A stretch of 64,000 nt of DNA from positions 13,329 through 77,328 of the forward strand of contig CAYWFP010000006.1 of NCBI GenBank assembly GCA_964457365.1. The letters are read 5' to 3'. A program made the position numbers and the translations under genes. The stretch is from an uncultured Planctomycetaceae bacterium (GTDB lineage Bacteria > Planctomycetota > SZUA-567). Shown one piece after another: positions 1,525 through 62,686 of the stretch. Numbering within the stretch: position 1 is the stretch's first letter; each line of letters opens with the position of its first letter. A model generated the notes under the pieces. The model searched no databases and was not told where the DNA came from. It worked only from the letters and a program-made list of their open reading frames with translations.

Positions 1525-2307
1525 TCATTTTGTTCCGCTCCGCCGGCAACGCCGGATTGGTCTCTCGAACCAACACGCGGCCTGTTTCGCCAACCGATTG
1601 GGATTCTTCCCCGATTCGCGCCTGAAGAAGTGCCGCCGACTTTGGCCGGAATGCTTTCTTGCCCCAGTACATAGCTTTTCCTGCCTCGCCTGCATCATGG
1701 CAGAGTCGGGCAGACGGCGTGGCTGTAAACTTTTACCGGAAATGACGCTGGCGGCAGTCGCTCGAGCGGAGTCGATAAACGGCAATGCGTATACGACAGA
1801 CGTCATTGCCGGGATGCGTCCCCGTCCGTACTCCGTCTCACCCAACGGCCACCAGCGCGACAAGCCGCTCGCGTGGGCTACCGGTTCGCGGCCGCGCCCC
1901 TCCCACGGCACGACCAGCGCGGCCTTGAGCGAGGGAAAATACGCGGCGGCCTGTTTGGCGTTGAGGATATCGAAGATCCGCTTCAGTTCGCGGCTCATAC
2001 GACAGAACCGGACCTGCACGTCCTGCTTCCCCGCGTCGACGGCGAACTGCAGCAGCGTCGCCAGGAACGTCGACGGCGCCGCCTGTACCTCCTTCAGGTT
2101 GACCACCACACGCGGATAGATCAGTGTGTCGAGGACGTTCCTGAACTCCCGCCCGACCTGCCGGATCGCGTCGAGCGAGCGCATGTCGTCGTGTTCGAAG
2201 TGAATCACCTCGCACTCCCGGTGCGGATCGGACTTGATGGTGAACAGCGTATAACGAAGCTCCCGCGGCGCTTGCGGCTTCTCCGGCGCCTTCTTGATTA
2301 CGCGCAT
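1525..2307 (-). CDS. STAS-domain-like protein (hypothetical)
   Basis: ORF 1525..2436; likely start MRVIKKAPEKP at 2307. N-terminal about 140 aa resembles a STAS/anti-sigma-factor-antagonist fold. The C-terminal part is low complexity, so the true end is uncertain. Confidence 0.4.
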   Translation of the reverse strand: MRVIKKAPEKPQAPRELRYTLFTIKSDPHRECEVIHFEHDDMRSLDAIRQVGREFRNVLDTLIYPRVVVNLKEVQAAPSTFLATLLQFAVDAGKQDVQVRFCRMSRELKRIFDILNAKQAAAYFPSLKAALVVPWEGRGREPVAHASGLSRWWPLGETEYGRGRIPAMTSVVYALPFIDSARATAASVISGKSLQPRRLPDSAMMQARQEKLCTGARKHSGQSRRHFFRRESGKNPNRLAKQAACWFERPIRRCRRSGTK

Positions 2308-2440
2308 GATGTCCTCCCGTGCTGAAATAAGTCTACACGTCGCGTCGCGGACTCGGCGTTGATGCCCGCGCACTCTCCTTCGCCAAGGCGCACCGCTCCC
2401 TCGCGAGCGGCCGCGTATCGCCAGCTCTCGGGGCAACGCC

Positions 2441-2546
2441 TTTAGAACCCGTTAAGCAATAAGATCGGGATTTCACTCGCTTCTTGACTGACGGCAAACC
2501 AGCTGCGCCGAAATTCTGAAATTATTGCTTAACGGGTCCTTAGACC
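2441..2546. repeat. MITE-like palindromic element copy 1 (22-bp terminal inverted repeats ctaaggacccgttaagcaataa / ttattgcttaacgggtccttag with 60-nt internal loop)
   Basis: The 16-bp perfect stem acccgttaagcaataa (2447-2462) pairs with ttattgcttaacgggt (2522-2537) in this intergenic region. The same unit recurs at 6366-6426. Confidence 0.8.
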
Positions 2547-2885
2547 ATGCGCTTGGTGCGCGCACGGCGTCTTTCATGTCGGGATTTACGCGTTGGATGA
2601 CGTATGGCTATGAATACACCCATAAACGTGCAAGCGATATGCCAGGGATGGTGGCCGTGCGCGGCAGGATTCGCAAGCATCGGATTACGAGCGGGTTATG
2701 CGGGCTGTCCCATTGCGGTTGAGGCGCGGAAACGCGTTTTGCTGCCACCGCCGTGCTGCGATCTAAAGCAGCGTGCGGAAATCTGCAGCGCATCGCAACG
2801 ATGGGCAGGGTCATAAAATACGGACGGAGCCATCGCTCCGCCCGCCTCCCTGGAATCCTTCATCACCGCGGACGCGCCGCGCCTA

Positions 2886-3041
2886 TTTCTTCGCTTTCAG
2901 CAGCAGGTGCCGCACCTCACGCGGCGGTAGCGTCACGGTAACCGCGCCGTTTTGCAGCGCGATCTCCTCGCCGCTCAGCGGATCGCTGACGCGGTAGGCG
3001 CCGGGGGCGAAGCCGAGCGCGGCGGCATCGAAGCCGACCTC
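2886..3041 (-). pseudogene. C-terminal remnant (about 52 codons) of a glycoside-hydrolase-like gene (...GAYRVSDPLSGEEIALQNGAVTVTLPPREVRHLLLKAKK*)
   Basis: The minus-strand frame translates to a typical GH C-terminal beta-sandwich ending, but it has no upstream start and the frame collapses above 3041. Confidence 0.35.
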
Positions 3042-3092
3042 CGATTATGCCCGGAGCGGCGAGTTCGCGCAAGCGTCGAAACGGCGGCGGGC

Positions 3093-4136
3093 TTACGGCG
3101 GGGTGATCGTGCCGTGTTCGTCCCAGAGGTCGCGCCAGTCCTGGCCGTCCTTCCAGAGGAAGACCTGCCCCTTGATCAACCGGCAGTTCTTGTCGATGCC
3201 GGCCAGCGCCCGCATGTCCTCTGCCGTTAGCGACGGCACGGCGGCGGCGCGCAGGTTGCCCAGGTAGTTGCGCCGCTTGGTCGACATCGGGATCGGCACC
3301 TGCCCGCGCAGCACCGCCCACTCGATGCAGACGAGCGCCGGGTGGATGCCGTGCGCCTCGGCGATCTCGCGCAGCACCGGGTCCTCCAGGTCGACCGTAT
3401 CCTCGGGCGTGCGGTCGCGCTCGGGGCGGTTGGGCGAGCCGAGCGGGCAGTAGCCGACCGGGATGATGCCGTGTTCGACGACGAAGTCGAAGAGCGCCGG
3501 CTGCTGGAAATGCGGATGCAACTCCATCTCGTTCACCGCCGGCTTGATCCGCGCATCCCGCAGCAGCAATTCGAGCTTCGGGACGGTCATGTTGCTCGTG
3601 CCGATATGGCGCACCAGACCCTCGTCCACGAGCCTCTCCATCTGCCGCCAGGTTTGCATGAAATTCTCGTGGATATAGGGCTTGGCGTCGGGGCTGCGCG
3701 AAGTGACGTCGCAGCCGGGCGGATGGAAGTTCGGGAACGGCCAGTGGACGAGGTACAGGTCCAGGTACTCAAGGCCCAGATCCTGCAGGCTCTGCCGGCA
3801 CGCCGGGATCACGTCGGCCTCGGCGTGCTTGTCGTTCCAGAGTTTGGAGGTGATCCAGAACTCTTCGCGCGGCACGCCGCCGGCGATGATCGAACGCAGC
3901 CCCTCGCCGATCAGCGTCTCGTTGGCGTAGACGGCGGCGCAGTCGAAGTGGCGGTAACCCACCCCGGCCGCGCCTACCATCGCATCGGCGATGGCCTCGC
4001 CGGCGGTATGATCGGAACCGAAGGTGCCCAGGCCGACGGCGGGCATGGTCGCGCCGGCGTGAAGCGTGCGCCGCGGCACGGCGGCCGGATCGACGCCGTC
4101 GTCGGCGAGCTGCAGCGGGGGGGCGGTGTAGGTCAT
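3093..4136 (-). CDS. Aldo/keto reductase family oxidoreductase
   Basis: ORF 3093..4202 trimmed to ATG at 4136 (MTYTAPPLQ). AKR motifs present: GLGTFG, DCAAVYANE, LDLYLVHWP and IPIPMSTKRRNYLGNL. Confidence 0.85.
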   Translation of the reverse strand: MTYTAPPLQLADDGVDPAAVPRRTLHAGATMPAVGLGTFGSDHTAGEAIADAMVGAAGVGYRHFDCAAVYANETLIGEGLRSIIAGGVPREEFWITSKLWNDKHAEADVIPACRQSLQDLGLEYLDLYLVHWPFPNFHPPGCDVTSRSPDAKPYIHENFMQTWRQMERLVDEGLVRHIGTSNMTVPKLELLLRDARIKPAVNEMELHPHFQQPALFDFVVEHGIIPVGYCPLGSPNRPERDRTPEDTVDLEDPVLREIAEAHGIHPALVCIEWAVLRGQVPIPMSTKRRNYLGNLRAAAVPSLTAEDMRALAGIDKNCRLIKGQVFLWKDGQDWRDLWDEHGTITPP

Positions 4137-4226
4137 GATCCTCGTCCTCTTCGTCTGAACTGCCGGCAGCTCAGGCGTTCCGGATGCCCCACGCTCGAGC
4201 AATCGGCTACCGGCATATATTCGGAG

Positions 4227-5303
4227 CTACCGGAGTTCCTCGTCGAAACAGACGGCGACCTTGCCGCAGTCGCCCCCGGCCATGAGCGCGTAGGCCTCGC
4301 CCGCCCGCTCCAGCGGGAAGCGGTGGGTGATCAGCTTCTCGGGGTGGATCCTCCAGCGGACGAGCAATTCCACCAGTTCCTCCATCCGCCAGATCGAAGT
4401 GACCCACGAACCGTGGAGCGTCTTCTGGTCGTGGATCATGTCCTCCGAGGGCTGGAACGCGACACCGCCGCCCTCGCCGAGGAAACAGATCTTCCCCCAC
4501 TTGCGGGTGGCGCGGATGCAGGTGTTGCGCGCGGTGTCGTTGGCCGAGCAGTCGACGGCGCGCTCGACGCCGTGGCCGCCGGTGAGATCGCGCACCGCCT
4601 CGACGTTCCCCGCTCCCGCGGTCAGCACCTGGTCGAAGAGCGCCAGCGACCGCGCCAGCTCCAGCCGCTGCGGACGGATATCGATACCGATGATCTGCTG
4701 CGCGCCCAGGCAGCGGCAGAGCATCGCCACGGCCAGTCCGACCGGCCCCAAGCCGGTGACCAGCACCGCGTCGCGGCCGGAGACGCCGATCTTGACCAGC
4801 CCCTCGAAGGCGGTGCCGAAGCCGCAGGCGACCTGCGCGCCGTCGGCGAAGCTGAGTGCATCGGGCAGGGCCACGAGGTCCTTCTCCTCGGCCAGCAGGT
4901 ACTCGCCCATCCCGCCGTGGCGCTGCCAGCCGTAAGCGCGGCGCCAGTCGCTGGTGCAGGAAATCATGTAGCCGCGGCGGCAGTCGTTGCAGAGGCCGCA
5001 GCCGCTGATGTGATAGACCATCACCCGGTCGCCCTCGGCGAAGCGTCGGCAGCCGGGCCCGACGGCGACGATCTGCCCAGCCGGCTCGTGCCCGGCGATC
5101 AGTCCGGGCTGATAGCCTTCGGGCCCCTCGCCGACGTGCTCGTGGTAGATGCAGCGGATGTCGGAGCCGCAGATGGTGGAGCATTTCGTCCTCAGCAACA
5201 CCTCGCCGTGGCCGGGCACCGGGATGTCGAACTGCTCGAGCTCGACGGTGCTGTTGCCGGGCAGGATGGCGCCGGTCATCGTCTTGGCGTCTGGCTGGGG
5301 CAT
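4227..5303 (-). CDS. Zinc-dependent alcohol dehydrogenase (MDR family; sorbitol/threonine dehydrogenase-like)
   Basis: GHEPAGQIVAVG and CGLCNDCRRG zinc-binding motifs plus the Rossmann motif VLVTGLGPVGL. Start chosen at 5303 (MPQPDAKTMTGA) with AAGGAG 7 nt upstream; an alternative ATG lies at 5279. Confidence 0.85.
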   Translation of the reverse strand: MPQPDAKTMTGAILPGNSTVELEQFDIPVPGHGEVLLRTKCSTICGSDIRCIYHEHVGEGPEGYQPGLIAGHEPAGQIVAVGPGCRRFAEGDRVMVYHISGCGLCNDCRRGYMISCTSDWRRAYGWQRHGGMGEYLLAEEKDLVALPDALSFADGAQVACGFGTAFEGLVKIGVSGRDAVLVTGLGPVGLAVAMLCRCLGAQQIIGIDIRPQRLELARSLALFDQVLTAGAGNVEAVRDLTGGHGVERAVDCSANDTARNTCIRATRKWGKICFLGEGGGVAFQPSEDMIHDQKTLHGSWVTSIWRMEELVELLVRWRIHPEKLITHRFPLERAGEAYALMAGGDCGKVAVCFDEELR

Positions 5304-5403
5304 GAAGCGCTCCTTTCGCGGCAGGGTCATGTCGCTCAATCTACCCGAACCGACGGGGAAAAGAAATGGCGCGATCCCGCGTGATGATGTATATTCTTGA
5401 TCT

Positions 5404-6369
5404 ATGGCGAAAAAACCTTCTTCCGCGGCGCAGGACCCGGACGCGGTGGCCTTCATCTCCAGGCGGGTTCGCGAGGGGGAGTATTTCTTTCTCGATCTGC
5501 AGCCGCGTTCGCAAGCCGCGCTCGCGGTCGCCTGTGGCGGGCGGGAGATATGCGGTCCCGATTACGTGATGGAACGCGCGGGCTTCGACTTCCTGGCGCT
5601 GGAATACGTCGCCGAAGGGACGGGCGAACTCGAGCTCGCCGGGAGGAATTTCCCCCTCCGCGCGGGAACGATCTTCACCTACGGGCCCGGCGTGGCCCAC
5701 CGCATCGGCGTCGGTCCCGGCGCGCACCTGGTGAAATATTTCGTCGACTTCACCGGTCGCGAAGCCGCGCGCCTGCTGAAGAAGGGCTCCCAGCACACCC
5801 CGCAGGCGTTGACCGTCGGCGATCCGCTGCGGGTGCAGCAGATCTTCGAGGACCTGATCCGAACCGGCCGCGAGGGCGAACGCCACGCGCGGCGCATCTG
5901 TGCGCTTCTTCTGGAAATGTTGATTCTTCGCATGGACGAGCGCGCCCTGCCGCGGCGCGAAGTCGATGGCATGTCGTGGTCGACCTACCAGGCGTGCCGC
6001 AACCATATCGCGCAGCACTGCCTGCAACTCAAGACCATCGGCGAGGTGGCCAGCGCCTGCGCGATCAGCGAAGCCCACCTCTGCCGCATCTTCAAGCGTT
6101 ACCACGCCACCACCCCCTACCGCTACCTCGTGCAATTGAAGATGTCGCACGCGGCGCGCGGGCTGCTCGATCCGCGGGTGCTGATCAAGGAAGTGGCCGC
6201 CCGCACGGGATACGACGATGCGTACCTTTTCTCCAAAGTCTTCAAACGCACCCTCGGCGTCTCGCCCGAAACGTTCCGGCGCCACCGCCTCTGGCACCGG
6301 CGCCCCGAAGACGAGACGCTGACGCACTTGGTGGCGTACACTGACGATAATCGCTCACCCGACAATTAA
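5404..6369 (+). CDS. AraC-family transcriptional regulator (cupin N-domain plus AraC HTH)
   Basis: The C-terminal double HTH (ISEAHLCRIFKRYHATTPYRYLVQLKMSHAARGLL ... DDAYLFSKVFKRTLGVSPETFRR) is typical of AraC/XylS. Divergent from the ADH gene. Confidence 0.85.
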   Translation: MAKKPSSAAQDPDAVAFISRRVREGEYFFLDLQPRSQAALAVACGGREICGPDYVMERAGFDFLALEYVAEGTGELELAGRNFPLRAGTIFTYGPGVAHRIGVGPGAHLVKYFVDFTGREAARLLKKGSQHTPQALTVGDPLRVQQIFEDLIRTGREGERHARRICALLLEMLILRMDERALPRREVDGMSWSTYQACRNHIAQHCLQLKTIGEVASACAISEAHLCRIFKRYHATTPYRYLVQLKMSHAARGLLDPRVLIKEVAARTGYDDAYLFSKVFKRTLGVSPETFRRHRLWHRRPEDETLTHLVAYTDDNRSPDN

Positions 6370-6426
6370 GGACCCGTTAAGCAATAATTTCAGAAATCCC
6401 GATCTTATTGCTTAACGGGTCCTAAG
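6366..6426. repeat. MITE-like palindromic element copy 2 (inverted orientation, 17-nt loop)
   Basis: ggacccgttaagcaataa - tttcagaaatcccgatc - ttattgcttaacgggtcc. The loop is the reverse complement of the copy-1 loop with a 41-nt internal deletion. Confidence 0.8.
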
Positions 6427-6892
6427 CTGCCTGCGCGCGGATTCGCGCCAACCGAGAGGAAACGGGAGAGCTTACCGGGTATTTGGTAACCGATAACCGA
6501 AGCCGCGCAAGGAGAATTCGGATGGCCAGGAAGAGAACGGTTCGCCGTAGCGATAACGCTGTGCGCACCAAGAGCGACCGCCCCGCGCCAAAGCGAAGGC
6601 CGCGCGCGCCCCGCGGATCCAGCGCGGGCGAGAGCTTGCTGACGATCGTCACCGCCCCGCCGTGCCGGGCCAGGTTCGCGCCCAGCCGCGCCTCGCTCTC
6701 GCCGTAGGCCTGCGCCGTGTCGAAGCAGCGCACACCCTGGCGCAGCGCCTCGGCGACGACCGCGTCGACCGTCTCCGCCGAGAGTTTTCCGCCCCGGTTG
6801 GCCACGCCGTAGTCCAGCCCAAGCTGCGCCGTGCCCAGCGCCAACACGGGGATCTGCTCCACCCGCCAGGCAATGGTCTCCATGCGCCGCAC
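6422..6892 (-). pseudogene. Truncated aldo/keto reductase (only N-terminal about 95 aa recognisable)
   Basis: METIAWRVEQIPVLALGTAQLG...DTAQAYGESEARLG is an AKR N-terminus. After about residue 95 the frame becomes Arg/Leu low-complexity and terminates abutting the palindromic element. Confidence 0.5.
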
Positions 6893-7084: not shown

Positions 7085-9331
<2,247 letters not shown>

Positions 9332-9397: not shown

Positions 9398-9673
9398 CTA
9401 GTCCTTGGCGCGCAACTGCAGGCGCGAGACCAGGCTGCGGTAGCGTTCGACGTCCTTGCGCCGCAGGTACTTCAGCAGCTTGTTGCGCTTGTTCACCATC
9501 GCCAGCAGCCCGCGGCGCGAATGGAAATCCTTCTTGTGCAAACGCATGTGTCCGGTCAGGTCGTTGATGCGCTCGGTGAGGATGGCGATCTGGATCTCTG
9601 GGCTGCCGGTGTCGTTCTCCTTGCCCCCGAACTCCTTGATGAGCTGGTTCTTCTTGTCCTTGGTCATGACCAT
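9398..9673 (-). CDS. rpsO: 30S ribosomal protein S15
   Basis: 91 aa matching S15 ([32 protein letters not shown]); classic rpsO-pnp arrangement. Confidence 0.95.
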
Positions 9674-30498: not shown

Positions 30499-37755
<7,257 letters not shown>

Positions 37756-37850
37756 CCCCGCGCGGGCATAGGCCAGGACATGAAAGGAGGCGTCAAGCTG
37801 GATGCGGATGAGATCCCCCTTTCGTCATACCGGCGCGCAAAACGGCCGGC

Positions 37851-38603
37851 TCAATCGACAGCCTTCGCCGTTTTCCCGTTTAGCGTGAAGATCGGCGTGA
37901 CCACGTACCCGATGTTCTGGAACAGCCGGCAGCGGGTGTCGAGTCGGATTCGCGGATACAGATCCATGAAAAGCTGCTTGAGCATTCCCTGTTCGCTCTC
38001 GGGAGCCTCCGGAACCACCGGCAATTCGCACGCGCGCACGAAGACCTCCCGGGCGAAAGCCGTCTCGGCGATCCAGATGCCGCCGTTCAAGTAACGGAAC
38101 TCGCTGCCCTCATCGGCGACGCGTTCCTCGAATTCCTTGAAGCGTTTGACATTCGGCCAGTTGAGCCGGTCGGCGCCGAAGAGCATGGCGCAGTCGAAGT
38201 CCAGCTCGAAACCGTCGACGATGCGGTGCGGATCGTCGATAACGATGGCGTCGCGCGAGTCGATATAGAGCGTGTACTTCGTGGGGATCTCCTGCAAAGC
38301 CGCGTGCAGCACGCGCGGTTTGTCGCGACTGTTGACCCACGGATCGACCCCCTGGCCGTGTACCCGCACCGGTACGCCCAGATGCGCGAGGCTCTCCTCG
38401 AGAGCGCCCATGGCTTCGTGGCCGTTGTTACAGGTAATGACGGTGGTATCGCGGAGAGGGCCGACCTCTCGTTTCGGCGAGGCGTAGAACCATTGCTTGA
38501 TCGGCTGCCAGTGGACCTTGTGCGTATGCGGTCCCTGGGCGTGGATCACCACCGGGTGCGTATCGAAGAGCGTATTGGTCAGCACGCGCGGCCTCTTCGT
38601 CAC
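37851..38603 (-). CDS. Hypothetical protein (250 aa) in PKS operon; possible GT-A-like/nucleotide-sugar transferase fold (weak)
   Basis: GTG start overlapping the ACP stop (ATGTGA). Contains YIDSRDAIVIDD (DxD-like). No confident homology. Confidence 0.5.
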   Translation of the reverse strand: MTKRPRVLTNTLFDTHPVVIHAQGPHTHKVHWQPIKQWFYASPKREVGPLRDTTVITCNNGHEAMGALEESLAHLGVPVRVHGQGVDPWVNSRDKPRVLHAALQEIPTKYTLYIDSRDAIVIDDPHRIVDGFELDFDCAMLFGADRLNWPNVKRFKEFEERVADEGSEFRYLNGGIWIAETAFAREVFVRACELPVVPEAPESEQGMLKQLFMDLYPRIRLDTRCRLFQNIGYVVTPIFTLNGKTAKAVD

Positions 38604-38911
38604 ATCTTCTGCGGACCGCTCGGCTGGGCGGAATGATCGGTCGTCTCGTGGATGAAGGAGGCCAATGTATCCAAGCTCAGATCGCCGACGTACTTGCCGT
38701 CTTTCATCAGGAGCTGCTCGTACGGCAGGCGGCAGTCGAAATGCATATCCAGCGACGCCAGAAGATGCAACACATCGACGGAGGTGAAGCCCAAATCCTC
38801 GCCCAATCGAGTCTCAGGATCGAGACGTATATCGTCGAGATCCCAGTCCGACACCATCTGGCCGACGACCTCGGTCGTGCCGGCCATAACCTCGTCCTTG
38901 CTCAAGGACAT
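38600..38911 (-). CDS. Stand-alone acyl carrier protein
   Basis: 103 aa with the phosphopantetheine-site motif DLGFTSVDVLHLLASL. Confidence 0.75.
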   Translation of the reverse strand: MSLSKDEVMAGTTEVVGQMVSDWDLDDIRLDPETRLGEDLGFTSVDVLHLLASLDMHFDCRLPYEQLLMKDGKYVGDLSLDTLASFIHETTDHSAQPSGPQKM

Positions 38912-38989
38912 AACGTGATCCTTTCCGATGACAATATGCGTGGCATCAACCTTGGCGGCGATTATAGTCCGCCATCTGCGATTGACCAG

Positions 38990-41900
38990 TTAAAAGCGAA
39001 TCAGACTTCGCCCGCAGGTCCAGGCCAGAACCCGATTCGACATAACTCTAAAATCGACAACATATTCCAAGTCCGACCCGGCGGGTTTCACCCGGCAACG
39101 CGAATCGGAATCCACGGCAACGACCTCCCATGCGTCGGGCTTTCCCTGCAGGCCCAGTCCGCTCGCCTTGGCCGCGGCCTCCTTGGCGCACCAGTACTTC
39201 AACAGCGTTTCGGGCTCCCGAGCAGGAAGGCGGTCCAGTTCCGCTTGCGTAAATGACCGTTGCAGCCACGGCCCTACAGCCCGTGCGCCGGGAAGCTCGA
39301 GATCCACACCTGCCGGCCTGCCGTTTTCGCTGCACGCCGCCGCGGCCACGTCCTCCGCGTGGGTGATGGAGACCGTCGGCGGACGGGGCAGATGCGCGCA
39401 CCGGACCACCGGCATGCCGTTCTCGTCGTTGTCGATCCCCAGGTCCGCCGGCCCCAGCAGCATCCCGTGGTGCGCCCACGCCCACGCCGTCACCGCCTCC
39501 TTGGCGGCGATGCGCCCGAGGAGGTAGCTTATCCGGCGCGGGCTTCCGGCCGGGAAGGCGTAGTAGCGCTCCCGCTCGGCTTCGTCGAGGTAGACGTGCG
39601 CGAGTACGCGCTGCCAGATGCCCCAGCTCGATTCCAGGAACGTTTTGCTCAAGACATTCACCATACGGATGAGCAAGCCGGGCGCCTGCGTCTCGACCGG
39701 AACGCTTATGCGGGCCTCGAGTTGCGGGAAATTGATCCGTTCGATAAACCCCGGCGGACAGTCGAAGAGCCGTTTACGTCCCCCTTCGACCAGCATGATC
39801 GTTTGTTCGTCCGGGGTGATGAACTCGTAGCGCGTGTGGACGATGCCGTTCTCGATCCGCAGCGCGCCGCGGCAGAGTACCTGCGTCTCCGGCGCAACCC
39901 GGGCGAAGATAGTGATGCGCTCCATGGCGAAGGGGAAGACGCCGAAGCTGTGCCGCTCGCTCCGCTCGACCAGCCAGTAGGCGACCAACTGCCCCGCGCA
40001 GTCCAGGAGCAGCGGCTCAAGCGCCAGCGTCGGTGCCGGATGGTCCGGGAAATACCGGCGCGGATCGCTCTCGCGGATTACCGCCTCGTAGCCGTGGGCG
40101 TCCATCCAGTTCACCTTCCGGATACCCTGCAGCGACGGGCCGTGAAACAGGAAATAGCGGTAGAACTCGTCGACCGTGACGCGGGGAGGCCGGGCCTCGG
40201 CATCGGGCCGGATCTCCGAAGAAGGCGCGGCGGGGTATTCGTCGGCGCAGACCACCACGGCCTCCAACACCAGTGCGCGCGCTTCCTCGTCGGCGAGTTC
40301 ATACACGCGCACGCGCGCGGCGCGCTCCGCCGGCTCGGATCCGATCCGCTCGGCCTGCAGTTCGATGCCGACGGCACCACGATCAAGTGCGAGCCAGCGC
40401 ATGCCGCGCACCTCGTCCAGCCGGATCGCCATGCCGCCAAGAAGCGCTACCGCCGCCTCGGCGACCGCTTCGATGCTGAACGCCATCGGCTGCACCGGCA
40501 GGCCCGACTCTGGCGCCGTCTGCGCGACCTTCCCCGCGCGGCCGAAACAGTGATCCAGCAGGTACCGGTCCTCTCCGGCGGCCAGCCGCCGGCGCGCGAC
40601 CAGGCGCGTCGGGCTCCGCTCGACCACCTCGCCCAGGAGCGGAGCAGAAGGTTTTGTCCCCGTCGGGCTCGGCGCCGTCTCCGGCGGCCGAACGCGTGGT
40701 GACGCGGCGGGCTGTTGCAAGCGTGCGACAAGCAGGGCGTGCAGGCGCGCCTGGCTTTCGAGAAACCGGTTCATCAACTCGAAATGGGCCTTGACGATCT
40801 CCGCGCGGTCGACCGGCACCCGCTGCGGCAACGCGGGTGGCGGGGGCGCGGATGGGATCGCGGTCGTCGGAGAAGGCGCGTGTTCGTCCGCGGATGCCGG
40901 CCTCACCGGCGGCAACAACTCGTCCAGGCTTGCAGGCTCCGGCGAGCCTTCGGCCAAGAGCGCTTCGGCGTTCCACGGCACGCCGGCGACGTACAACTGC
41001 CCGAGTCCGTCCAGAAAGCTCTGCAGGCTCGGCTCCGCGCCCATGGCCAGCGCCGTGTGCGGCCGTCCGCGCAGGATGTCGCCGACGAACGGAGTGAGCA
41101 GGTTTCCCGGTCCGACTTCGAGAAAGGTGCGCACGCCGTCCTCGTGGAGCCGTTCGACGGTCTCGCGGAAGCGCACCGTGTGGACGAGCTGGTTGCGGAT
41201 CGTCTCGAGCATGGCTTCGGATTCTTCCGGCATGGGTCCCACGGCATAACAACTGAAGAGCGGAATCGTCCCGCCCCGCAGACGCAACCGCGCGAAGAAC
41301 CCGTCGTAACGCTGGAGCCGCTTCGCGAAGAGCGGCGTATGGAACGGCAGATCGAAAGGGATCGGCAGGCAGATCGCGCCCGCCTCCTGCAGACGGTCGA
41401 TGGCCCGCTCCATCGCCTCGTCATCGCCGAAGAGGACGAGTTGGTGCGGCGCGTTGTCCATGGTCAGAAAGACGCGCTCGCCATCGACCACGTCGGCGAG
41501 GCAGTCGCGGTCGCGTACACTCACGGCCACACTGCGCCCGCGCGGGACCGTCTCGCTCCGCTCCACCTCGCGGGCGAAATCCGCCAGTTCCCGCAAGAGC
41601 TGCAGGTATTCGCCGCGTTCGATACGGCTGCTTCCGCTGGCGACGAGGGCGATGTTCTCCCCGTTACTGTGACCGAGCATCGCGTCGACGGGAACGCCAA
41701 GCCGCCCGAGCAGATCGCAGAGCCCCAGCGTGCCGACGACCACCGCCGCGCCGCCGGCGTTGATGTCCAGAAGAAAACGCTTCACCGCTTCGCCTTGTTC
41801 TCCCGTCAATACGGCCGGCGGATGGAGCAGCGTACTGACCGCGTTCTCCTGCGGATGCGCGAAGGTCGCGTCGAGCTGGTCGAACGCGGACCTTATCGAC

Positions 41901-43339
41901 GGGAACGCCAGCGCCAGGTCGTGCATCATGCCGGTCTGCTGGGCGCCCTGTCCGGGCATCAGCCAGGCGACCGTTCCCCGCTCGGTTTCGACCGCGACGC
42001 CGTACCATATGCCGTACCGCGTCCGCAGTCTTCCCTTCTCCGGCAGCAGCGGTCGAATCCGCCGAAGCTTCTGCAGCAATTCCAGGCTGTCGCTCGCGCG
42101 GACCGCCAGCCGCGCCGGGCCGTCCGCCTCTGGCAGCAACGCCTGCGCCAACGACTCCGCCGAGACGTCCGGTCGGGTTTCGAGCCGGCGGATCAAATCG
42201 TCGATCCGTGCGAGCATGGCTTGCGGCGACGGCGCGCCGAGGAGAAACAACGTTTCCGTCCGGATCGGCGTGCGCGGAGCGCGCCCGCTCGCGGCTTCGC
42301 ACAACCGCCAATGACAGGCCATTCCGCCGGGTTCGACGGAGGTGATGCCCACGCGTCGGAGATCGGCCTCTGCGCGGAACCACGCGCGGGCGCTCGTGTC
42401 GACCCGCATGTTCGCGTCTGTCGTCGTCGCGCCGGAGAGCGGCGGCAGCAGTTTCTCCCGGAGCGCCAGGCAGCCGCAGAACAGCGCGCCCAATCCCGCC
42501 GCCGCGCCGGCGTGGTCGAAGACGTTCTTCTCGCATCCCAACGTCACCACCGGCAGCGCGAGTCCCGGCGGCAGGCGCGATTCGAGGGACTCCAGTTCCC
42601 GTCGGTCCTGAGACGGGCCGCCGCCGCTCAGGAGTTGCCATGACGGCGGCAGCGGTTCATTCGGATAGGCCGTCTCCAGCAACGCGTCCAACGTGTCTCG
42701 CGAAGCATGCGGCCAGGCGAGCTCCGGCTCGTGTACGCGAATGATCGCTTCGAGTACGGCGTAGGCCTTCGTATTCTCCGTCTCGCGGCTCAGCACCAGG
42801 CAGACCCCGCCGGCCATGGGAAGGATGCCCTCTGCGCCATCGGCGAGTGCGCGCATGGGCGTATTGAGCAGCAAGCCGCTTCCGCGCAGGTGCAGCAGCA
42901 GCGCTTCGGGGATCATGCGCTGCACCGCCAGGAGGGCCACGGTCGGGGACGCCTCCAGCATCCTTCCCGCCACGTTCAGCAATGCGCCCGAATCCGAGAG
43001 CGGCGCGTGAAAGCGGAGGTACGGGTAGTCCTTCGCCAGCGAAGCGGCCCAATCCGGCGGGGCGACGACATCGACAGCCGGCGCGACACCGCCGGGCCGC
43101 GCCAGAATTCGGGCGTACTCCGTCTCTGTCGCGTACAGCAGCGGGATCTTCGTCTCGGGCTCGACTCCCGCGTCGCGCAACGCTCCACGTACGAGCGCGG
43201 CCGGGTCGGGAATCGGCGCGCGCGTCGCTTCGGGAGGACGCCCCGGACTGCGCAGCAGCGCCCAGATATCCTCGAGCGTATTGTACTGCGCCAGGTGGGC
43301 GCTCACGCCGATGATCGCGAGTGGTCCGCTCGGATTCAT
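38990..43339 (-). CDS. Polyketide synthase subunit: degenerate KS-like (KS0), AT, PKS-type DH, C-terminal Sfp-type phosphopantetheinyl transferase (1449 aa)
   Basis: KS0: LAIIGVSAHL... with no active-site Cys. AT: GHSNGE. DH: YFLFHGPSLQGI and LLDCAGQL (DxxxQ). PPTase: GVDLE and WCAKEAAAKASGLG, plus the first-half LGRIAAKEAV. Confidence 0.85.
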   Translation of the reverse strand: MNPSGPLAIIGVSAHLAQYNTLEDIWALLRSPGRPPEATRAPIPDPAALVRGALRDAGVEPETKIPLLYATETEYARILARPGGVAPAVDVVAPPDWAASLAKDYPYLRFHAPLSDSGALLNVAGRMLEASPTVALLAVQRMIPEALLLHLRGSGLLLNTPMRALADGAEGILPMAGGVCLVLSRETENTKAYAVLEAIIRVHEPELAWPHASRDTLDALLETAYPNEPLPPSWQLLSGGGPSQDRRELESLESRLPPGLALPVVTLGCEKNVFDHAGAAAGLGALFCGCLALREKLLPPLSGATTTDANMRVDTSARAWFRAEADLRRVGITSVEPGGMACHWRLCEAASGRAPRTPIRTETLFLLGAPSPQAMLARIDDLIRRLETRPDVSAESLAQALLPEADGPARLAVRASDSLELLQKLRRIRPLLPEKGRLRTRYGIWYGVAVETERGTVAWLMPGQGAQQTGMMHDLALAFPSIRSAFDQLDATFAHPQENAVSTLLHPPAVLTGEQGEAVKRFLLDINAGGAAVVVGTLGLCDLLGRLGVPVDAMLGHSNGENIALVASGSSRIERGEYLQLLRELADFAREVERSETVPRGRSVAVSVRDRDCLADVVDGERVFLTMDNAPHQLVLFGDDEAMERAIDRLQEAGAICLPIPFDLPFHTPLFAKRLQRYDGFFARLRLRGGTIPLFSCYAVGPMPEESEAMLETIRNQLVHTVRFRETVERLHEDGVRTFLEVGPGNLLTPFVGDILRGRPHTALAMGAEPSLQSFLDGLGQLYVAGVPWNAEALLAEGSPEPASLDELLPPVRPASADEHAPSPTTAIPSAPPPPALPQRVPVDRAEIVKAHFELMNRFLESQARLHALLVARLQQPAASPRVRPPETAPSPTGTKPSAPLLGEVVERSPTRLVARRRLAAGEDRYLLDHCFGRAGKVAQTAPESGLPVQPMAFSIEAVAEAAVALLGGMAIRLDEVRGMRWLALDRGAVGIELQAERIGSEPAERAARVRVYELADEEARALVLEAVVVCADEYPAAPSSEIRPDAEARPPRVTVDEFYRYFLFHGPSLQGIRKVNWMDAHGYEAVIRESDPRRYFPDHPAPTLALEPLLLDCAGQLVAYWLVERSERHSFGVFPFAMERITIFARVAPETQVLCRGALRIENGIVHTRYEFITPDEQTIMLVEGGRKRLFDCPPGFIERINFPQLEARISVPVETQAPGLLIRMVNVLSKTFLESSWGIWQRVLAHVYLDEAERERYYAFPAGSPRRISYLLGRIAAKEAVTAWAWAHHGMLLGPADLGIDNDENGMPVVRCAHLPRPPTVSITHAEDVAAAACSENGRPAGVDLELPGARAVGPWLQRSFTQAELDRLPAREPETLLKYWCAKEAAAKASGLGLQGKPDAWEVVAVDSDSRCRVKPAGSDLEYVVDFRVMSNRVLAWTCGRSLIRF

Positions 43340-56970: not shown

Positions 56971-57001
56971 CGGTCTTTCCGCGGAGTCGACAACAATTCC
57001 A

Positions 57002-57034
57002 GCGCGCACGGCCAAGGCCGTGCGCGTGTTTTTT
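57002..57034 (+). terminator. Rho-independent terminator
   Basis: GC hairpin gcgcacggcc-aa-ggccgtgcgc followed by gtgtttttt, located 32 nt after the stop at 56970. Confidence 0.6.
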
Positions 57035-57157
57035 GATCTACGGACTTGTTCAAAAATAAAATCTTGAGAGTACCGTATTCACGCTATGAAGCCAAGCGTA
57101 ATCCTTCGGCTCTTGTAATATCGATTTTTGGGCGGATGAATTTTGGGGGGGCAGTTC

Positions 57158-57270
57158 CGGGGACTCCGGTTCCGGGGACAGTTTACTTAATTCGGAGGAA
57201 TCTACTAGAAAAGGACTCCGGTTCCGGGGACAGTTTACTTAATTCGGAGGAATCTACTAGAAAAGGGTGG
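57158..57270. repeat. Tandem direct repeat, about 52-bp unit x2 (ctccggttccggggacagtttacttaattcggaggaatctactagaaaagg) plus partial third copy
   Basis: Two perfect adjacent copies in an AT-rich non-coding region. Confidence 0.85.
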
Positions 57271-57271
57271 C

Positions 57272-57439
57272 AAACGCTGCGGGGGCAGGTTGCGTGGGCA
57301 CTTCCAGTATTATGGAGTGAGCGAGAACACCGTCGGCATAACCCGTTTCTATCGGTTCGACCTGCGGGCGACCCGGAAGTGGCTCAACCGGCGCAGTCAG
57401 AAGGGGCGGATGAGTTGGGCGCGATTTATGGCCTACTAA
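57272..57439 (+). pseudogene. Remnant resembling C-terminus of group II intron/retron-type reverse transcriptase-maturase
   Basis: The frame reads GHFQYYGVSENTVGITRFYRFDLRATRKWLNRRSQKGRMSWARFMAY*. This resembles the maturase C-terminal pattern GWxNYY...F..D.....RRL..W..RR..K....W. No N-terminal RT domain is present. Confidence 0.3.
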
Positions 57440-57592
57440 TCGCGCCATCAAATACATTGCGCACGCGGTGGCCGAAGAAGCAGTAAATCAGGCATTATCG
57501 ACGGGTTGCCTGCAAGGTATTTTTAGGCGCGGTTAGTAATTTCCTCCTATCGGACAACGAAGGCAGGAATGGATCACAAGCGATGAGGAGTG

Positions 57593-58042
57593 TTATGCTT
57601 TTTCACCCGTCTCATCGTCGCGGTTGTGCCATGTCTGGTCGAAAGGATTGTAGATCGAGACGCCAGCGGGAAGCATGTCCTTGACGGTACGCGTGGCGAC
57701 GGTCAGACCGTGCGCGATCGCGGTGGCGGCAATCAGCGAATCGATGGCGGGAAGCGGATGCCCCCTGGATTCCGTCTCGGCGCATAATGCCGACCATGCG
57801 TCGGTCTCCAGTTTGCCGATCGGAAGGATGCGGCCGGCGAAGCGACGCTTCATCTCGTCGATCCACGCCATTACTTCGTCGCGGCGCGCAGGATCGTCGA
57901 GTTTGCGCGCGCCCTTCTCCAACTCGCCGACAGTCAGGATGCTGAAATAGGGATCGATCCCATTCAGCCAGTCGATAACGGTTTGGTCGGGGCGCTGGCG
58001 GCGCTGTTCCGAGATGACGCAGGTGTCGACGAAAAACTTCAC
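57593..58042 (-). CDS. vapC: PIN-domain toxin VapC
   Basis: MKFFVDTCVISE start with a conserved acidic D and the ...IDSLIAATAIAHGLTVATRTV C-terminal region; 149 aa. Overlaps the antitoxin gene by 4 nt. Confidence 0.8.
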   Translation of the reverse strand: MKFFVDTCVISEQRRQRPDQTVIDWLNGIDPYFSILTVGELEKGARKLDDPARRDEVMAWIDEMKRRFAGRILPIGKLETDAWSALCAETESRGHPLPAIDSLIAATAIAHGLTVATRTVKDMLPAGVSIYNPFDQTWHNRDDETGEKA

Positions 58043-58269
58043 AAATCGACCTCGCGCGGCAGAGACTTGTCACGCTTCACGATGAAATCGTCGTCGAAGG
58101 GAGCGGTTGCCAGAAAATCGCCGAAGCGGATTTCATCCGGGGATTGCGGATCGGGGAGGATGACCGACAGCGTCACCTCGCCCTCGGGATAATCCCCGGG
58201 GACGTCGATATCGATGTGCGCCTTGTGGTCGCGACCGATAATCGCCTTGGCCTGCAGGGTCCGCGTCAT
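58039..58269 (-). CDS. VapB-family antitoxin (putative)
   Basis: 76-aa ORF immediately upstream of vapC with a 4-nt overlap. Confidence 0.6.
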   Translation of the reverse strand: MTRTLQAKAIIGRDHKAHIDIDVPGDYPEGEVTLSVILPDPQSPDEIRFGDFLATAPFDDDFIVKRDKSLPREVDL

Positions 58270-58544
58270 GGTTCTTTTCTCCGAAAGTTACGTAGAAAAT
58301 TATACTTCAAGACGGCTCATTCGTCAATCCATGAACATGCGTTCGGTCTTTTAAGATGCGTGGAAAGCGATGGGTAATGTTTTCATTAGAGATGTCCGTT
58401 CAGGCGCAAGGGCACAATGACGGCAAGCCATGCTCCGGCTCTACAGGCCCCTCCGGCCCCGGCAAGCTTTGCAGTAAGCCGAGTTGACTCCATGTCATCA
58501 ATGCCCGTCCCGCAAGATTCTACGCCACGGTCCATCAACTTCGT

Positions 58545-58584
58545 AAAGCACAGGTCGTCGGTTCGAGTCCGACAGTTGGCTCCA
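58545..58584 (+). tRNA. tRNA 3'-half fragment (T-arm GTCGG-TTCGAGT-CCGAC, acceptor 3' strand AGTTGGC, discriminator T, CCA); no 5' half, probable att remnant
   Basis: Canonical T-loop TTCGAGT with a 5-bp stem (58557-58573) followed by a 7-nt acceptor strand and CCA. No complementary 5' acceptor strand lies within 120 nt upstream. Confidence 0.55.
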
Positions 58585-58955
58585 CGACACGCCATGCCCC
58601 GGGACGCTTGACTAGCGCCTCGGGGCTTTTCTTACGCCTGTTCAGCGACGGGTTCCGCACGATATCCCCCGGGGAGGGGTGGCGGCAGGATCGGCTATTC
58701 TCGGCTCATCAGGCAACTATAGAAGGACTGCTGTGACAGTAAGCGCGGCGGTAAGCGGGTACGTGTTGGAAGAAAATTTATAGGAAATCCAGGAAGAGAC
58801 CTGCTTCAGATGCCATAACTGCATGTATTTTTGACGTTGGCTTGAATTCGGCTAAAGGAACCCTGCGGGATTTCCTAAAGCGGCCTGCGTCGGATGCGTC
58901 ATATGCAAGACAGCTTGCGCATTGGCTCTTGTGGCATTAAATGAAAGCCGTTGGA

Positions 58956-60707
58956 TCACGGCCCGCCATAATCCAGCAGCTTCAAGACAATCGTATCGTT
59001 CATCCGTGTCTCCAAGATGCCTTGGCACGGAATTTCATTGGTCGTATAGCTGCGGAATTTGGCTCCGCTGTCGAAGGTCGTATCCAGAATATGGCAGGCG
59101 ATCTTCTTGTTCTTGAATGGATAATTTCCCTGGCGCACCATGGGATTATTTCCAGTCGGGTCGGTCGAAGGCGTCACGTGGATAGTCATGCTGCCGATAG
59201 ACTCTCCATTGCGGCTGCGATCGATGCGGACCGAGACTTTCTCCGGCGTTACCTTGACCACCGTGTGCCTCGCCTGTACCCCACCAGCCATCTGGTAAAG
59301 CGCCCATTCGCCCACCTTCGCGTCGGCCAGGCAATCGGGCAGCTGCGGTTTATTCGTATCGCTCTTTTGGGCAATCGGCTGTTTGATCACACCGTTGGGG
59401 AGAAGCGCTTCGATATCGCTGCCGAGTCGATCGGGCGTGCGTTCTTCTTCCTCGTAGACCTTGCGTACCTTACCCTGCGTGTCGATAAGAATTACCGTCG
59501 GCACCGACATGCACGCCCCGTAATCGAGCCACATCTCCGTATTGGCATAGACAGTCGGATAAGGATACGTCTGCTTTTCCGCCTCGCCGACCTGCCGCTC
59601 CGACGACCTGTTCCATTCCGGCATCTTGTCCACCGAGACCAGGAGCACGGTGAAGCCGGCGGAGCCATACTTCTCCTGTAATGACTTCAGCATATCCAGG
59701 CTTTTCCTGCACTCCGGGCAGAATGCAGCCCAGAACTCGATCAAAACGACCTTGCCTTTGAGCTCCGCAATCGTCAACCGGCCGCCCTCAAAGCGCGATA
59801 GATCGAACGGCGCGGCTGCTTCGTTTCGTTCCGAGCGCGCAAGCATCTGCGCCTTGCCCCAGCCACGCTTGGCGTAATCGACATTCTGTTGCCATTTCTT
59901 TTCGCCGCTCAATTCGATCAATCGCTCGTTTTTTTCGACTGATTGCCGATAGGCTTTCGCTGCCTCGATGAACTTGCCTTCCTTGCTCAGTCGGTCGCCC
60001 AGAAGCAGAAGCTGATATCCCGGTTGCTGTAGCGTGAAGATATAGTTCTGGCGGTTGGTTGCATTGTCGGCGACCTCGAGCACTTCCGTATACGCCTTCT
60101 CCGCTTCGGCGTATTTCACAATCGCGGCCTCAATTTGACCTTTCTCAACCAAGGCCTTGGCTTCGTCAATGATCGCGAAGGCCTGTGCGGCCATCTCCTC
60201 GGGCGTCCGCGTCTTCAACGAAGCGGATTCTTCCTTCGCCTCGGGCTCAACTTGCTTCTCTTCACTCTTGACGGCAATCGCTTCGTCCACGACCTTGCGT
60301 CCGTTCACGCGGTCGGCATCGATATAGCCTTTGGCCACGACCATTCCGTCTTTCAACACCTCTACCTGCTTCCATCGGCCATGCGCGGCAAGAACGCGCA
60401 CCTTGCCGCCTTGGGGAATGATGTGTTCGGTATACTCCGGCAACTCCGATTCGGAAGCGAACTTCATTTCGCGCAGAACATAGGTCGTGCGTCCGCGCAT
60501 CTCCCAGATTCCATCCTTCGAGTCATAGAAAGCAGTCTGCGGTGGCAGATCATCCTCGGCAATCTCTTCGTTCGAACGCGAGGGCAGGATAGAGAAGAGC
60601 CACTGCGAACCGTTATGAATCAAGATAGGCGAGGCGAGAAAGAGCAGCATTAACAGGACGCCGAGCACCCAGGGCCAACGCTTCGATTTCTTCTTGCTCG
60701 TTTTCAT
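58956..60707 (-). CDS. Secreted multidomain protein: SH3-like, TPR-like helical region and TlpA-like thioredoxin-fold (redoxin) domain
   Basis: N-terminal signal/TM, a Lys/Glu-rich helical repeat region, and the redoxin motif IEFWAAFCPECRK (CxxC). Confidence 0.65.
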   Translation of the reverse strand: MKTSKKKSKRWPWVLGVLLMLLFLASPILIHNGSQWLFSILPSRSNEEIAEDDLPPQTAFYDSKDGIWEMRGRTTYVLREMKFASESELPEYTEHIIPQGGKVRVLAAHGRWKQVEVLKDGMVVAKGYIDADRVNGRKVVDEAIAVKSEEKQVEPEAKEESASLKTRTPEEMAAQAFAIIDEAKALVEKGQIEAAIVKYAEAEKAYTEVLEVADNATNRQNYIFTLQQPGYQLLLLGDRLSKEGKFIEAAKAYRQSVEKNERLIELSGEKKWQQNVDYAKRGWGKAQMLARSERNEAAAPFDLSRFEGGRLTIAELKGKVVLIEFWAAFCPECRKSLDMLKSLQEKYGSAGFTVLLVSVDKMPEWNRSSERQVGEAEKQTYPYPTVYANTEMWLDYGACMSVPTVILIDTQGKVRKVYEEEERTPDRLGSDIEALLPNGVIKQPIAQKSDTNKPQLPDCLADAKVGEWALYQMAGGVQARHTVVKVTPEKVSVRIDRSRNGESIGSMTIHVTPSTDPTGNNPMVRQGNYPFKNKKIACHILDTTFDSGAKFRSYTTNEIPCQGILETRMNDTIVLKLLDYGGP

Positions 60708-60750
60708 CTCGTTTCCCCTCTCTCGCTATCGCAATGCTTTCCGTTCCGAC

Positions 60751-61119
60751 CTACGGCTTACTCCACTCATGCCAGTCGCCGCCGGTAGCATTTCTCCAAA
60801 GAATATAGAACGGATCATTCTCCGAGGCGATATCGACCGCACGCTGGAAATCGTCGTAGGATTCGGGAAAGTGATCCATCTCCTCGAGCCATTGCCAGAA
60901 GTCATCGGGCGTGCCGACACCCGTCTTCTCTGAAAGCCATTCGTGATAATTCTCGTCGCGCGGTTGTTCGTGATCCATGTACTCGTTGTGCGCCTGCATC
61001 ACGCGCGCGGTGTCCGAAATTGCCGATAAAAGCAGGTCGATCACTACATCGGAACTGTTCACGCTCGCGGGAGCATTGGCCAGGTGTCCGGCAAGCGAAG
61101 CCATTTCGGTCAGTATCAT
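60751..61119 (-). CDS. Hypothetical acidic protein (122 aa)
   Basis: Start MILTEMASLAG. Trp/Asp/Glu-rich (DDFWQWLEEMDHFPESYDDF), with no recognisable domain. Confidence 0.45.
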   Translation of the reverse strand: MILTEMASLAGHLANAPASVNSSDVVIDLLLSAISDTARVMQAHNEYMDHEQPRDENYHEWLSEKTGVGTPDDFWQWLEEMDHFPESYDDFQRAVDIASENDPFYILWRNATGGDWHEWSKP

Positions 61120-62240
61120 TATCTTTCCCCTTTCTTCTTTGATGCTTTCGTATGCACCGGAGCGTTTTGCCCGAGGCATCCAGCGACTTGATGCGTCAAA
61201 TACATTTGGTTGCGTATGGCGAACGGCCAAGTTAACAAGTTCCAGATGCCGATCTCTTTTCCCCTTCGTTTCATGATCAGCGGAAAAGACAAAACATAGC
61301 GCCAAGTTCTGCGAAGCTCGCGGCTGGCAATAAGCGCGCGGACTCCCTGCACCAGGTCGACCAGGATCACGATCGCCAGCAGCACGACGAAAATCCAGGG
61401 CGTCCACTGCCCGCGGCCGATATAGTCCAGGTAATCACGCGCTTGCTGACGCAGATTATACAAGCCGTGTTCCAAGACGACCCAGGAGAAGCATAGCAGC
61501 GGCAATACCCACCACCAATAGTTGCCACGCGCAAATTTCAGCCTCTTGATATGCTCTCCGAGCGCGATGCCAAGCGCGGTAAAGCCAGCGGCGGCGGCAT
61601 GCCCGATAAATCCCATCGAACCGTGACGCCCCATGCTCACGCCGAGCGCGTCTTGAAAGAAATGGAAGCCGCCGAAAGCCGGTCCGTAGACGAAGTCGTA
61701 CGCCTTGACGCCGACAGGATAGAACATCTTCTCGACAATGTCGAAGCCCGCCCCGCACAGAAGCGCCATGACGACTATATCGCTACCGGTAAACCTCGTG
61801 CGTGTCCGCCGCCAACCCCACCAGATCGCCAGTACGACCGGCAGCACCTTGACCGCTTCTTCCAGGATCGGAATGTAGATGCCGCTCATCCACCACAGCT
61901 TCGGATCGATCCCGAAGACGTGCCAATATAGCCCCTGCCCCAATAGCAGCGTGATACCCATGCACAACCAGATGCCGCGCGAGAAGAATTGAAGCGCCCG
62001 CATCGTCGGGATCGACCGCGTCAGCCAGGTAATCAGCAACGCTTCGAGAATCAGGATACCTTCGAGCCGGAACCAGTCTGTGCCATGCTTGTAGTCGTGA
62101 TAAAGGTAGCGCGAGGCAAGCGCCAACAGTGACAAGATAGAGATTCCGAGGCAGACATGGCGGAGGATCATGCGTTTCTGTGACTTGCGCGGCTTTTCCC
62201 GGTGCATGATTCTGGCGTTATCGGTGTCGATATCACTCAT
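61119..62240 (-). CDS. Polytopic membrane protein, possibly PrsW-like intramembrane protease family
   Basis: About 8 TM helices; EEAVK, GFDIVEKMFY and HAAAAGF motifs are reminiscent of PrsW. Start MSDIDTDN at 62240. Confidence 0.5.
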   Translation of the reverse strand: MSDIDTDNARIMHREKPRKSQKRMILRHVCLGISILSLLALASRYLYHDYKHGTDWFRLEGILILEALLITWLTRSIPTMRALQFFSRGIWLCMGITLLLGQGLYWHVFGIDPKLWWMSGIYIPILEEAVKVLPVVLAIWWGWRRTRTRFTGSDIVVMALLCGAGFDIVEKMFYPVGVKAYDFVYGPAFGGFHFFQDALGVSMGRHGSMGFIGHAAAAGFTALGIALGEHIKRLKFARGNYWWWVLPLLCFSWVVLEHGLYNLRQQARDYLDYIGRGQWTPWIFVVLLAIVILVDLVQGVRALIASRELRRTWRYVLSFPLIMKRRGKEIGIWNLLTWPFAIRNQMYLTHQVAGCLGQNAPVHTKASKKKGER

Positions 62241-62413
62241 CGGTTCCCCTCTGCCCAATTGACTTACATCAATCGTAGTCGAGTCGGCGCAATCGGGCAA
62301 GTCACTTTCGGCCTCGTCGGCTGCAGTATGGCTATCATCGGCCCAGCAATATGCGCGCCAGGCCGACAAGCAGAACAAACACATGACATTATTGCAGTTA
62401 CGATAGGCAATAG

Positions 62414-62686
62414 ATGAGCAATGTCAAGACGTTGTTGTTTGTCTTGTCGGATTACACCACACTGAAACGCAGAACTGCGTTCGTTGAAGCACTACACTGT
62501 CACGATCTGGACATGAGCTTGATCGAACCGAAGCAAGAGATCGATTACGAGGGACATCTGAAACGCTTCATAGATGAATTGCGTCGATCACGCGTTGAGG
62601 GGCACGGTGACAAGGACATCTTTGCAGAGATGATCGAATTGCTGGCGCCAGATGGCGGCGGGCGAGCCTTGCTGACATTAGTTTGA
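62414..62686 (+). CDS. Hypothetical protein (90 aa)
   Basis: ORF only; it overlaps the decayed parA frame on the opposite strand. Confidence 0.3.
   Translation: MSNVKTLLFVLSDYTTLKRRTAFVEALHCHDLDMSLIEPKQEIDYEGHLKRFIDELRRSRVEGHGDKDIFAEMIELLAPDGGGRALLTLV

Follow-up and report, generated by a model that had tools for sequence, protein, structure and literature searches.

Two inverted copies of a short palindromic element, candidate members of a miniature inverted-repeat transposable element family, beside an AKR/Zn-ADH/AraC module in a Planctomycetota contig

Bacterial miniature inverted-repeat transposable elements (MITEs) carry terminal inverted repeats (TIRs) of 15-30 bp, lack coding capacity, resemble degenerate insertion sequences (ISs) and are usually 70-300 bp long (PMC3733652). 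Repetitive extragenic palindromes (REPs) are 20-40 bp long, bear a GTAG/CGTC tetranucleotide, occur in high copy and are accompanied by a RAYT gene (PMC3733652). Within the IS5 family, the IS1031 group is recognized by a direct repeat of exclusively 3 bp at a 5'-TNA-3' target (PMC12016507; PMC1676026). Here we describe a short palindromic element that occurs in two inverted copies within a 64,000-nt stretch of contig CAYWFP010000006.1 from an uncultured Planctomycetaceae bacterium (hereafter the window), where the copies lie on either side of genes for an aldo/keto reductase (AKR), a zinc-type alcohol dehydrogenase (Zn-ADH or ADH) and an AraC-family regulator. It is probable, though by no means certain, that these copies represent a new, small family of bacterial MITEs and that both were inserted independently of each other.

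Copy 1 occupies positions 2442..2542 on the plus strand (101 nt including flank repeats), with a core of 95 nt at 2445-2539 whose arms lie at 2445-2462 (GAACCCGTTAAGCAATAA) and 2522-2539. Copy 2 occupies 6367..6425 on the minus strand (59 nt including flank repeats), with a core of 53 nt at 6370-6422 and arms at 6370-6387 and 6405-6422. Repeat analysis delimited slightly longer hairpins, namely 2441-2543 for copy 1, with arms at 2441-2462 and 2522-2543 around a 59-nt interior, and 6366-6426 for copy 2, with 19-nt arms at 6369-6387 and 6405-6423 that are 100% complementary and enclose a 17-nt loop. The inverted repeat of copy 2 is perfect over 18-19 nt and that of copy 1 extends over 18 nt with one mismatch; all four arms have 18 nt in common, G(G/A)ACCCGTTAAGCAATAA. 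Two long-range inverted matches connect the copies, one of 33 nt between 2442-2474 and 6393-6425 (97% complementary) and one of 29 nt between 2514-2542 and 6367-6395 (100% complementary), and copy 2 is therefore the reverse complement of copy 1 minus 42 internal nt. A preliminary description of this DNA had placed two inverted copies here, and both direct reading and repeat analysis bear it out. It had also assigned them a shared 22-bp TIR; terminal inverted repeats are indeed present, but the exact 22 nt are found only in the right arm of copy 1, with three differences in its left arm (tttagaacccg...) and one in each arm of copy 2 (ttaagg... and ...cctaag). The relation between the two loops was likewise recognized correctly, except that the deletion measures 42 nt (59 - 17) rather than 41.

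The arms are far from a chance feature of the local sequence. The arm 15-mer CCCGTTAAGCAATAA occurs four times in the window against 0.04 expected, a count that none of 100 shuffles reached, and apart from the two copies no local inverted repeat of 18 nt or more exists in the entire 64 kb. As single strands they fold with -22.9 and -20.4 kcal/mol for copies 1 and 2, respectively (z = -4.8 and -7.8 relative to shuffles). Coding capacity is absent, since all frames that pass the left arm reach a stop inside the element (hand translation; both strands of copy 2 and the plus strand of copy 1). Both copies are intergenic: copy 1 lies 131 nt upstream of the start of a STAS-domain gene and about 280 nt past the terminator of the ADH-AKR operon, and copy 2 lies at the exact 3' end of araC, between convergent transcription units.

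These properties raise the question of whether the hairpins are mobile at all. A non-mobile palindrome maintained by selection, be it REP-like, a stabilizer or terminator at mRNA 3' ends, or an operator for a dimeric DNA-binding protein, would account for the great stability of the folds, for the intergenic positions at the 3' end of araC and upstream of the STAS gene, and for the very low copy number. An intrinsic terminator was considered and rejected: neither hairpin is followed by a T-run, neither was called in a terminator scan, and the ADH-AKR operon has a terminator-like hairpin of its own at 2820-2845. The GTAG or CGTC tag of the REP super-families (PMC3733652) is missing from the elements, and Rfam at the gathering threshold returned no match across the whole window. 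Further evidence on this alternative comes from a third copy of the element, presented below.

The six ends of the three known elements were aligned. Each core begins GGACCC or GAACCC and ends GGGTCC, and the three bases immediately outside the core form a direct, non-inverted repeat in 3/3 elements: TTA at 2442-2444 and 2540-2542 for copy 1, TAA at 6367-6369 and 6423-6425 for copy 2, and TAA on both sides of the third element. An extension of the inverted repeat would read TAA...TTA, and the flanks are therefore not part of it. Judged from these sequences, the 3-bp direct flanks would represent the signature of a target-site duplication at T(A/T)A. In copy 2, the left TAA doubles as the stop codon of araC, and the reconstructed empty site, ...GACAAT TAA GCTGCC..., leaves araC intact.

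A discrete segment bounded by inverted repeats could also reflect site-specific recombination, in which case the repeats would be integron attC-like sites or inverton repeats served by a recombinase, and the arms do hold GTTAAGC and GCTTAAC, which fit the degenerate attC cores GTTRRRY and RYYYAAC. An attC site reads 5'-RYYYAAC ... GTTRRRY-3' and forms an imperfect stem with extrahelical bases. In the elements, however, the motif order is reversed on either strand (GTTRRRY...RYYYAAC) and the stems are perfect, with no extrahelical bases. Moreover, the "cassette" has three genes, served by a regulator and a promoter region of their own, and no integrase or invertase domain was found among the approximately 45 open reading frames (ORFs) of the window scanned with Pfam. 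We therefore give recombination sites almost no credence.

The third member of the family was found on a metagenomic contig, L025 (JAAUXY010003505.1), at 2552-2378 on the minus strand, where it spans 175 nt including flank repeats. It consists of CTAAGGACCCGTTAAGCAATAA, an interior of about 130 nt and TTGTTGCCTGAACGGGTCCTAAG. Its left arm matches 22 nt exactly and its right arm has diverged, such that a repeat finder reports arms of 16 nt at 88%, or longer ones if one indel is allowed. The hairpin folds with z = -5.4, and the interior is partly alignable with copy 1, in the right subterminal region and a CTCGCT motif. The element is the only sequence that this contig and the window have in common. 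It lies upstream of a gene for an ICMT-type methyltransferase whose named homologues (68-80% identical) all come from Acidobacteriota or Thermoanaerobaculia. The window, on the other hand, is assigned to Planctomycetota, given that all named homologues of its polynucleotide phosphorylase come from that phylum, none being closer than 67%. Identical 22-nt ends thus occur in two phyla, which requires mobility, at least of a parent element.

A related contig, L074, matches L025 at 99.4% identity over 2318 nt that span the ICMT and photolyase genes, and it lacks the element. Upstream of its ICMT gene, L074 carries a type III polyketide synthase (PKS) gene separated from the ICMT gene by 7 nt, an arrangement also present in L075 and L078, and two shorter contigs (L076 and L077) have the same PKS 3' end upstream of ICMT. 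The occurrence of the same arms beside unrelated genes in another phylum, together with their absence from a 99.4%-identical contig, argues for mobility over a conserved position, and the modules homologous to AKR/ADH/AraC in relatives have no such hairpin. Hence, a selected, non-mobile palindrome is in our view unlikely. The MITE-like character attributed to the elements in the preliminary description has, in turn, been strengthened by the inverted repeats, the direct TWA flanks (W, A or T) of all three elements, the member in another phylum and the near-identical element-free contig.

The boundary was compared between L025 2378-2708 and L074 3300-3400. The identity between the two contigs ends at the ICMT start codon, upstream of which L025 has GCTG, TAA, the element and then an unrelated stretch of 156 nt in which a gene starts divergently (MITEPCPSVPKSALYLLAPVLLLT...). 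In alignment, the right-hand TAA of the element falls at the PKS stop codon of the relatives, which is followed by G. The L025 boundary must also reflect a larger insertion, rearrangement between two copies or chimeric assembly at the repeat, each of which implies more element sequence in the L025 genome than is visible. As a side observation, the flanks of copy 2 and of the L025 element share extra bases, CCGAC-N3-TAA on one side and TAA-GCTG on the other, with a polarity that runs opposite to the one suggested by the element interiors; a wider target preference (YTWAG) or chance could account for this. The operon itself, comprising genes for a trypsin-like protease, an unknown protein, the type III PKS and the ICMT-like methyltransferase, recurs in marine or host-associated Acidobacteriota contigs (L074, L075 and L078) and is sometimes followed by a photolyase gene. 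Its gene content suggests a product of the methylated alkyl-resorcinol or pyrone type.

With copy 2 on the araC stop and the L025 element where relatives have the PKS stop, two of the three elements are located at stop-codon sites. TWA trinucleotides are depleted about seven-fold in the GC-rich window (290 versus approximately 2000 expected), and 11 of its 152 non-coding TWA sites (~7%) are stop codons. One could envisage a cross-phylum element family that prefers TAA stop codons in GC-rich genomes and regenerates the stop, making insertion costless at gene ends; paired copies might even delimit larger mobile segments, for which the L025 boundary offers a hint. We consider this extended scenario improbable.

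Further family members were sought by exact-arm scans, which would miss diverged arms. In 185,579 species genomes (one genome per species, the source genome not being among them), eight single-arm chance matches and no further copy were found, and viral contigs likewise yielded eight chance matches and no further copy. A metagenome collection gave 55 matches, of which only the L025 element remained after a script check for extended identity and a second inverted arm. Plasmids were searched by blastn with the whole 103-nt element, with no match.

As MITEs, the elements would be non-autonomous, with TIRs of 18-22 bp around a short, deletion-prone non-coding interior, and the nested lengths of 175, 101 and 59 nt are consistent with an origin by internal deletion. 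A DDE transposase whose gene lies elsewhere would bind both arms, excise or copy the element and insert it at T(A/T)A via a 3-nt staggered cut, leaving direct TTA/TAA repeats on either side. By target and duplication length, this transposase would be most like those of the IS1031 group of the IS5 family; an IS5/IS1031-type enzyme is thus possibly the source of mobility and is put forward as a lead rather than a result. Copies 1 and 2 would have been inserted separately, one upstream of the STAS gene and the other on the TAA stop of araC, which it regenerated. They would bracket a native AKR/ADH/AraC module by chance, without having imported it.

Several observations weigh against the MITE interpretation. 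Just three members are known, with no other copy in the species-genome, metagenome, viral or plasmid collections, and no autonomous IS with matching arms was found in the genome, metagenome, viral or plasmid searches. The Pfam scan detected no transposase in the window ORFs, a few intergenic gaps lying outside the scan. The similarity of the arms to the ends of IS5 or ISLrh does not exceed that of shuffled sequence; 1681/2000 shuffles reached the observed score for the ISLrh inverted repeat and 1184/2000 that for the IS5 ends (L083; K-12 IS5A), and the idea of such arm similarity was accordingly dropped. The 53-nt core of copy 2 falls below the 70-300 bp usual for bacterial MITEs (PMC3733652). 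With n = 3, the flank-repeat argument is weak, as the chance expectation is 1/8 if the middle A/T base is free at each end. Finally, L025 and L074 do not form a clean filled/empty pair, because the DNA adjoining the L025 element on the left is unrelated.

The genes between the copies were confirmed by Pfam to be those named in the preliminary description. The AraC-family regulator (AraC_binding and HTH_18) is encoded at 5404..6369 on the plus strand, divergently from an operon on the minus strand that comprises the Zn-type ADH (ADH_N and ADH_zinc_N; 4227..5304) as its first gene and the AKR (3093..4136). The operon continues with the last 53 codons of a deleted gene (2883..3044, minus strand; ending in GAVTVTLPPREVRHLLLKAKK before the stop), which have a high GC content at third codon positions (GC3) and no match in Pfam or in the module loci of relatives. 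Approximately 40 nt past the stop codon of this remnant lies the terminator-like hairpin (2820..2845, minus strand), with 11 pairs followed by ATTTTAT, where the ADH-AKR operon probably has its native 3' end. A deletion removed the body of the downstream gene and left this end of the operon in place.

Homologues of the AraC protein are at most 56% identical, the named ones coming from phyla of the Planctomycetes-Verrucomicrobia-Chlamydiae (PVC) group, and the three best, on distant PVC-type contigs, were looked up for gene order. L079 has AKR(-), ADH(-) and AraC(+); L082 has GH116, GH172, AKR(-), ADH(-) and AraC(+); and L080 matches in part, with AKR, an ADH-like gene, fucosidase, AraC, melibiase and rhamnosidase. 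Identities to the window proteins are 67-74% for AKR, 46-50% for ADH and 51-56% for AraC. No hairpin element was found at the module borders in any of the three. The GC content and GC3 of the module equal those of the neighbouring polynucleotide phosphorylase gene (pnp), without compositional anomaly. Because its order is kept elsewhere without elements and its composition is ordinary, the module is an old conserved unit of sugar-utilisation loci rather than recent cargo. We infer that it is native and vertically inherited, the remnant of a larger sugar-utilisation locus that was hit by deletions.

This bears directly on whether the two copies delimit a composite, MITE-bounded cassette of 3.9 kb, or act as recombination substrates through which the AKR/ADH/AraC segment as a whole moves, is excised or changes orientation. 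Such a reading draws on the inverted copies that bracket a self-contained regulator and operon, on the gene fragments on both sides that indicate a rearranged locus, and on the L025 element, at which conserved DNA gives way to unrelated DNA, as expected at the end of a larger insertion. Homologous inversion is possible in principle, as the exact matches of 29-33 nt between the copies might just suffice for it. A composite move, however, would leave one duplication at both outer ends, whereas the outer flanks differ (TTA at 2442-2444 versus TAA at 6423-6425) and each copy has its own matching pair; there is hence no composite duplication. The same module order in three distant relatives without flanking elements, best homologues whose 46-74% identity (comparable to the 67% of pnp) gives no sign of recent transfer, and the pnp-like GC and GC3 all argue against a cassette, as does the lack of a transposase or invertase in the scanned ORFs. 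Nor are the gene truncations explained by capture between two MITEs, since neither abuts an element, the 53-codon remnant lying inside the flanked segment at 340 nt from the nearest copy. No alternative junction was seen. The sole independent assembly, Logan contig L001 (SRR7048224), stops one base before the 29-nt exact match to copy 1 is complete, an expected graph break that copies 1 and 2 alone explain and that is uninformative on orientation. We judge a composite or invertible cassette very unlikely, and the "accessory, mobilisable unit" of the preliminary description is not upheld; independent insertion of two MITEs beside a native module is preferred.

Around the module, the left neighbour is the STAS-domain gene (1525..2310, minus strand) and the right neighbours are the housekeeping genes pnp (7085..9331, minus strand) and rpsO (9398-9673, minus strand). 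Between copy 2 and pnp, directly downstream of the latter, lies a truncated second AKR gene (6632..6892, minus strand), a pseudogene fragment encoding the first ~70 residues (positions 2-71 of 291 in the Pfam AKR profile), with a coding signal that fades below about 6570. Its ORF continues through non-coding DNA to a TAG to which the core of copy 2 contributes its last base and the right TAA its first two. On the other side of copy 2, the AraC protein has a C-terminal tail of about 22 aa (HRRPEDETLTHLVAYTDDNRSPDN), encoded within 6295-6369 on the plus strand, that most homologues do not have, and on visual inspection the GC3 bias is lost over the last ~9 codons. The original end of the gene may have been lost, so that reading now continues to the TAA bordering the element. 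Synteny around pnp is not shared with the closest pnp relative (67% identical).

Elsewhere in the window, very large polyketide or polyunsaturated fatty acid (PUFA)-synthase-like genes occupy 30499-43339 on the minus strand. They encode an NMO-KS-AT-ACP-KR protein of 2418 aa and an AT-DH-PPTase protein of 1449 aa, between which are a stand-alone ACP (38600-38911) and a PLOD-type glycosyltransferase (37851-38603). A region at approximately 57000-63000 has a GC content of 0.52-0.57, compared with 0.65-0.72 elsewhere in the window. It contains minus-strand genes for a TPR and redoxin protein (58956-60707) and a PrsW-type protease (61119-62384), along with a ParA/MinD-like ORF of 159 aa that covers the N-terminal part only (62545-63024). 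No transposase was seen in this region, which may be an island of foreign or relaxed composition.

If the assignment holds, these elements bring a MITE family to Planctomycetota, on whose MITEs a brief search of the literature found little, and the occurrence of near-identical ends in a contig from Acidobacteriota indicates that the parent transposon has spread horizontally between phyla. For annotators, the AKR/ADH/AraC module would best be treated as the native remnant of a sugar-utilisation locus and not as a mobile cassette. Such hairpins also break short-read assemblies, as seen in the Logan contig. The cross-phylum occurrence and the two insertion sites at stop codons are the only mildly surprising aspects of an otherwise ordinary finding.

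Compared with known systems, the locus resembles composite transposons in having two inverted copies that bracket a few genes, but the flanking elements are non-autonomous, share no outer duplication and enclose a conserved chromosomal module that is element-free in relatives. Like REPs and REPINs, the elements are small extragenic palindromes, such as sometimes occur in inverted pairs; unlike them, their arms start with GGACCC or GAACCC without GTAG/CGTC, these arms are terminal and have flank duplications, the copy number is low and no RAYT gene was seen. With the IS1031 group (ISLrh and IS1031) they share a 3-bp TNA-type repeat (TTA/TAA in 3/3 elements) and ends starting with GA or GG, although the elements contain no transposase gene and the link consists of duplication length and target. 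The bacterial MITEs, which include Correia/NEMIS of Neisseria, RUP of Streptococcus pneumoniae and Nezha of cyanobacteria, differ from the present elements in that the observed copies are few here (two in 64 kb and one across searchable metagenomes), the copy 2 core is as short as 53 nt, no cognate autonomous IS was found and the members are distributed over two phyla. The elements nevertheless resemble these MITEs in being short, non-coding and intergenic hairpins with TIRs of 15-30 bp, in their short flank duplication and in the generation of length variants via internal deletion.

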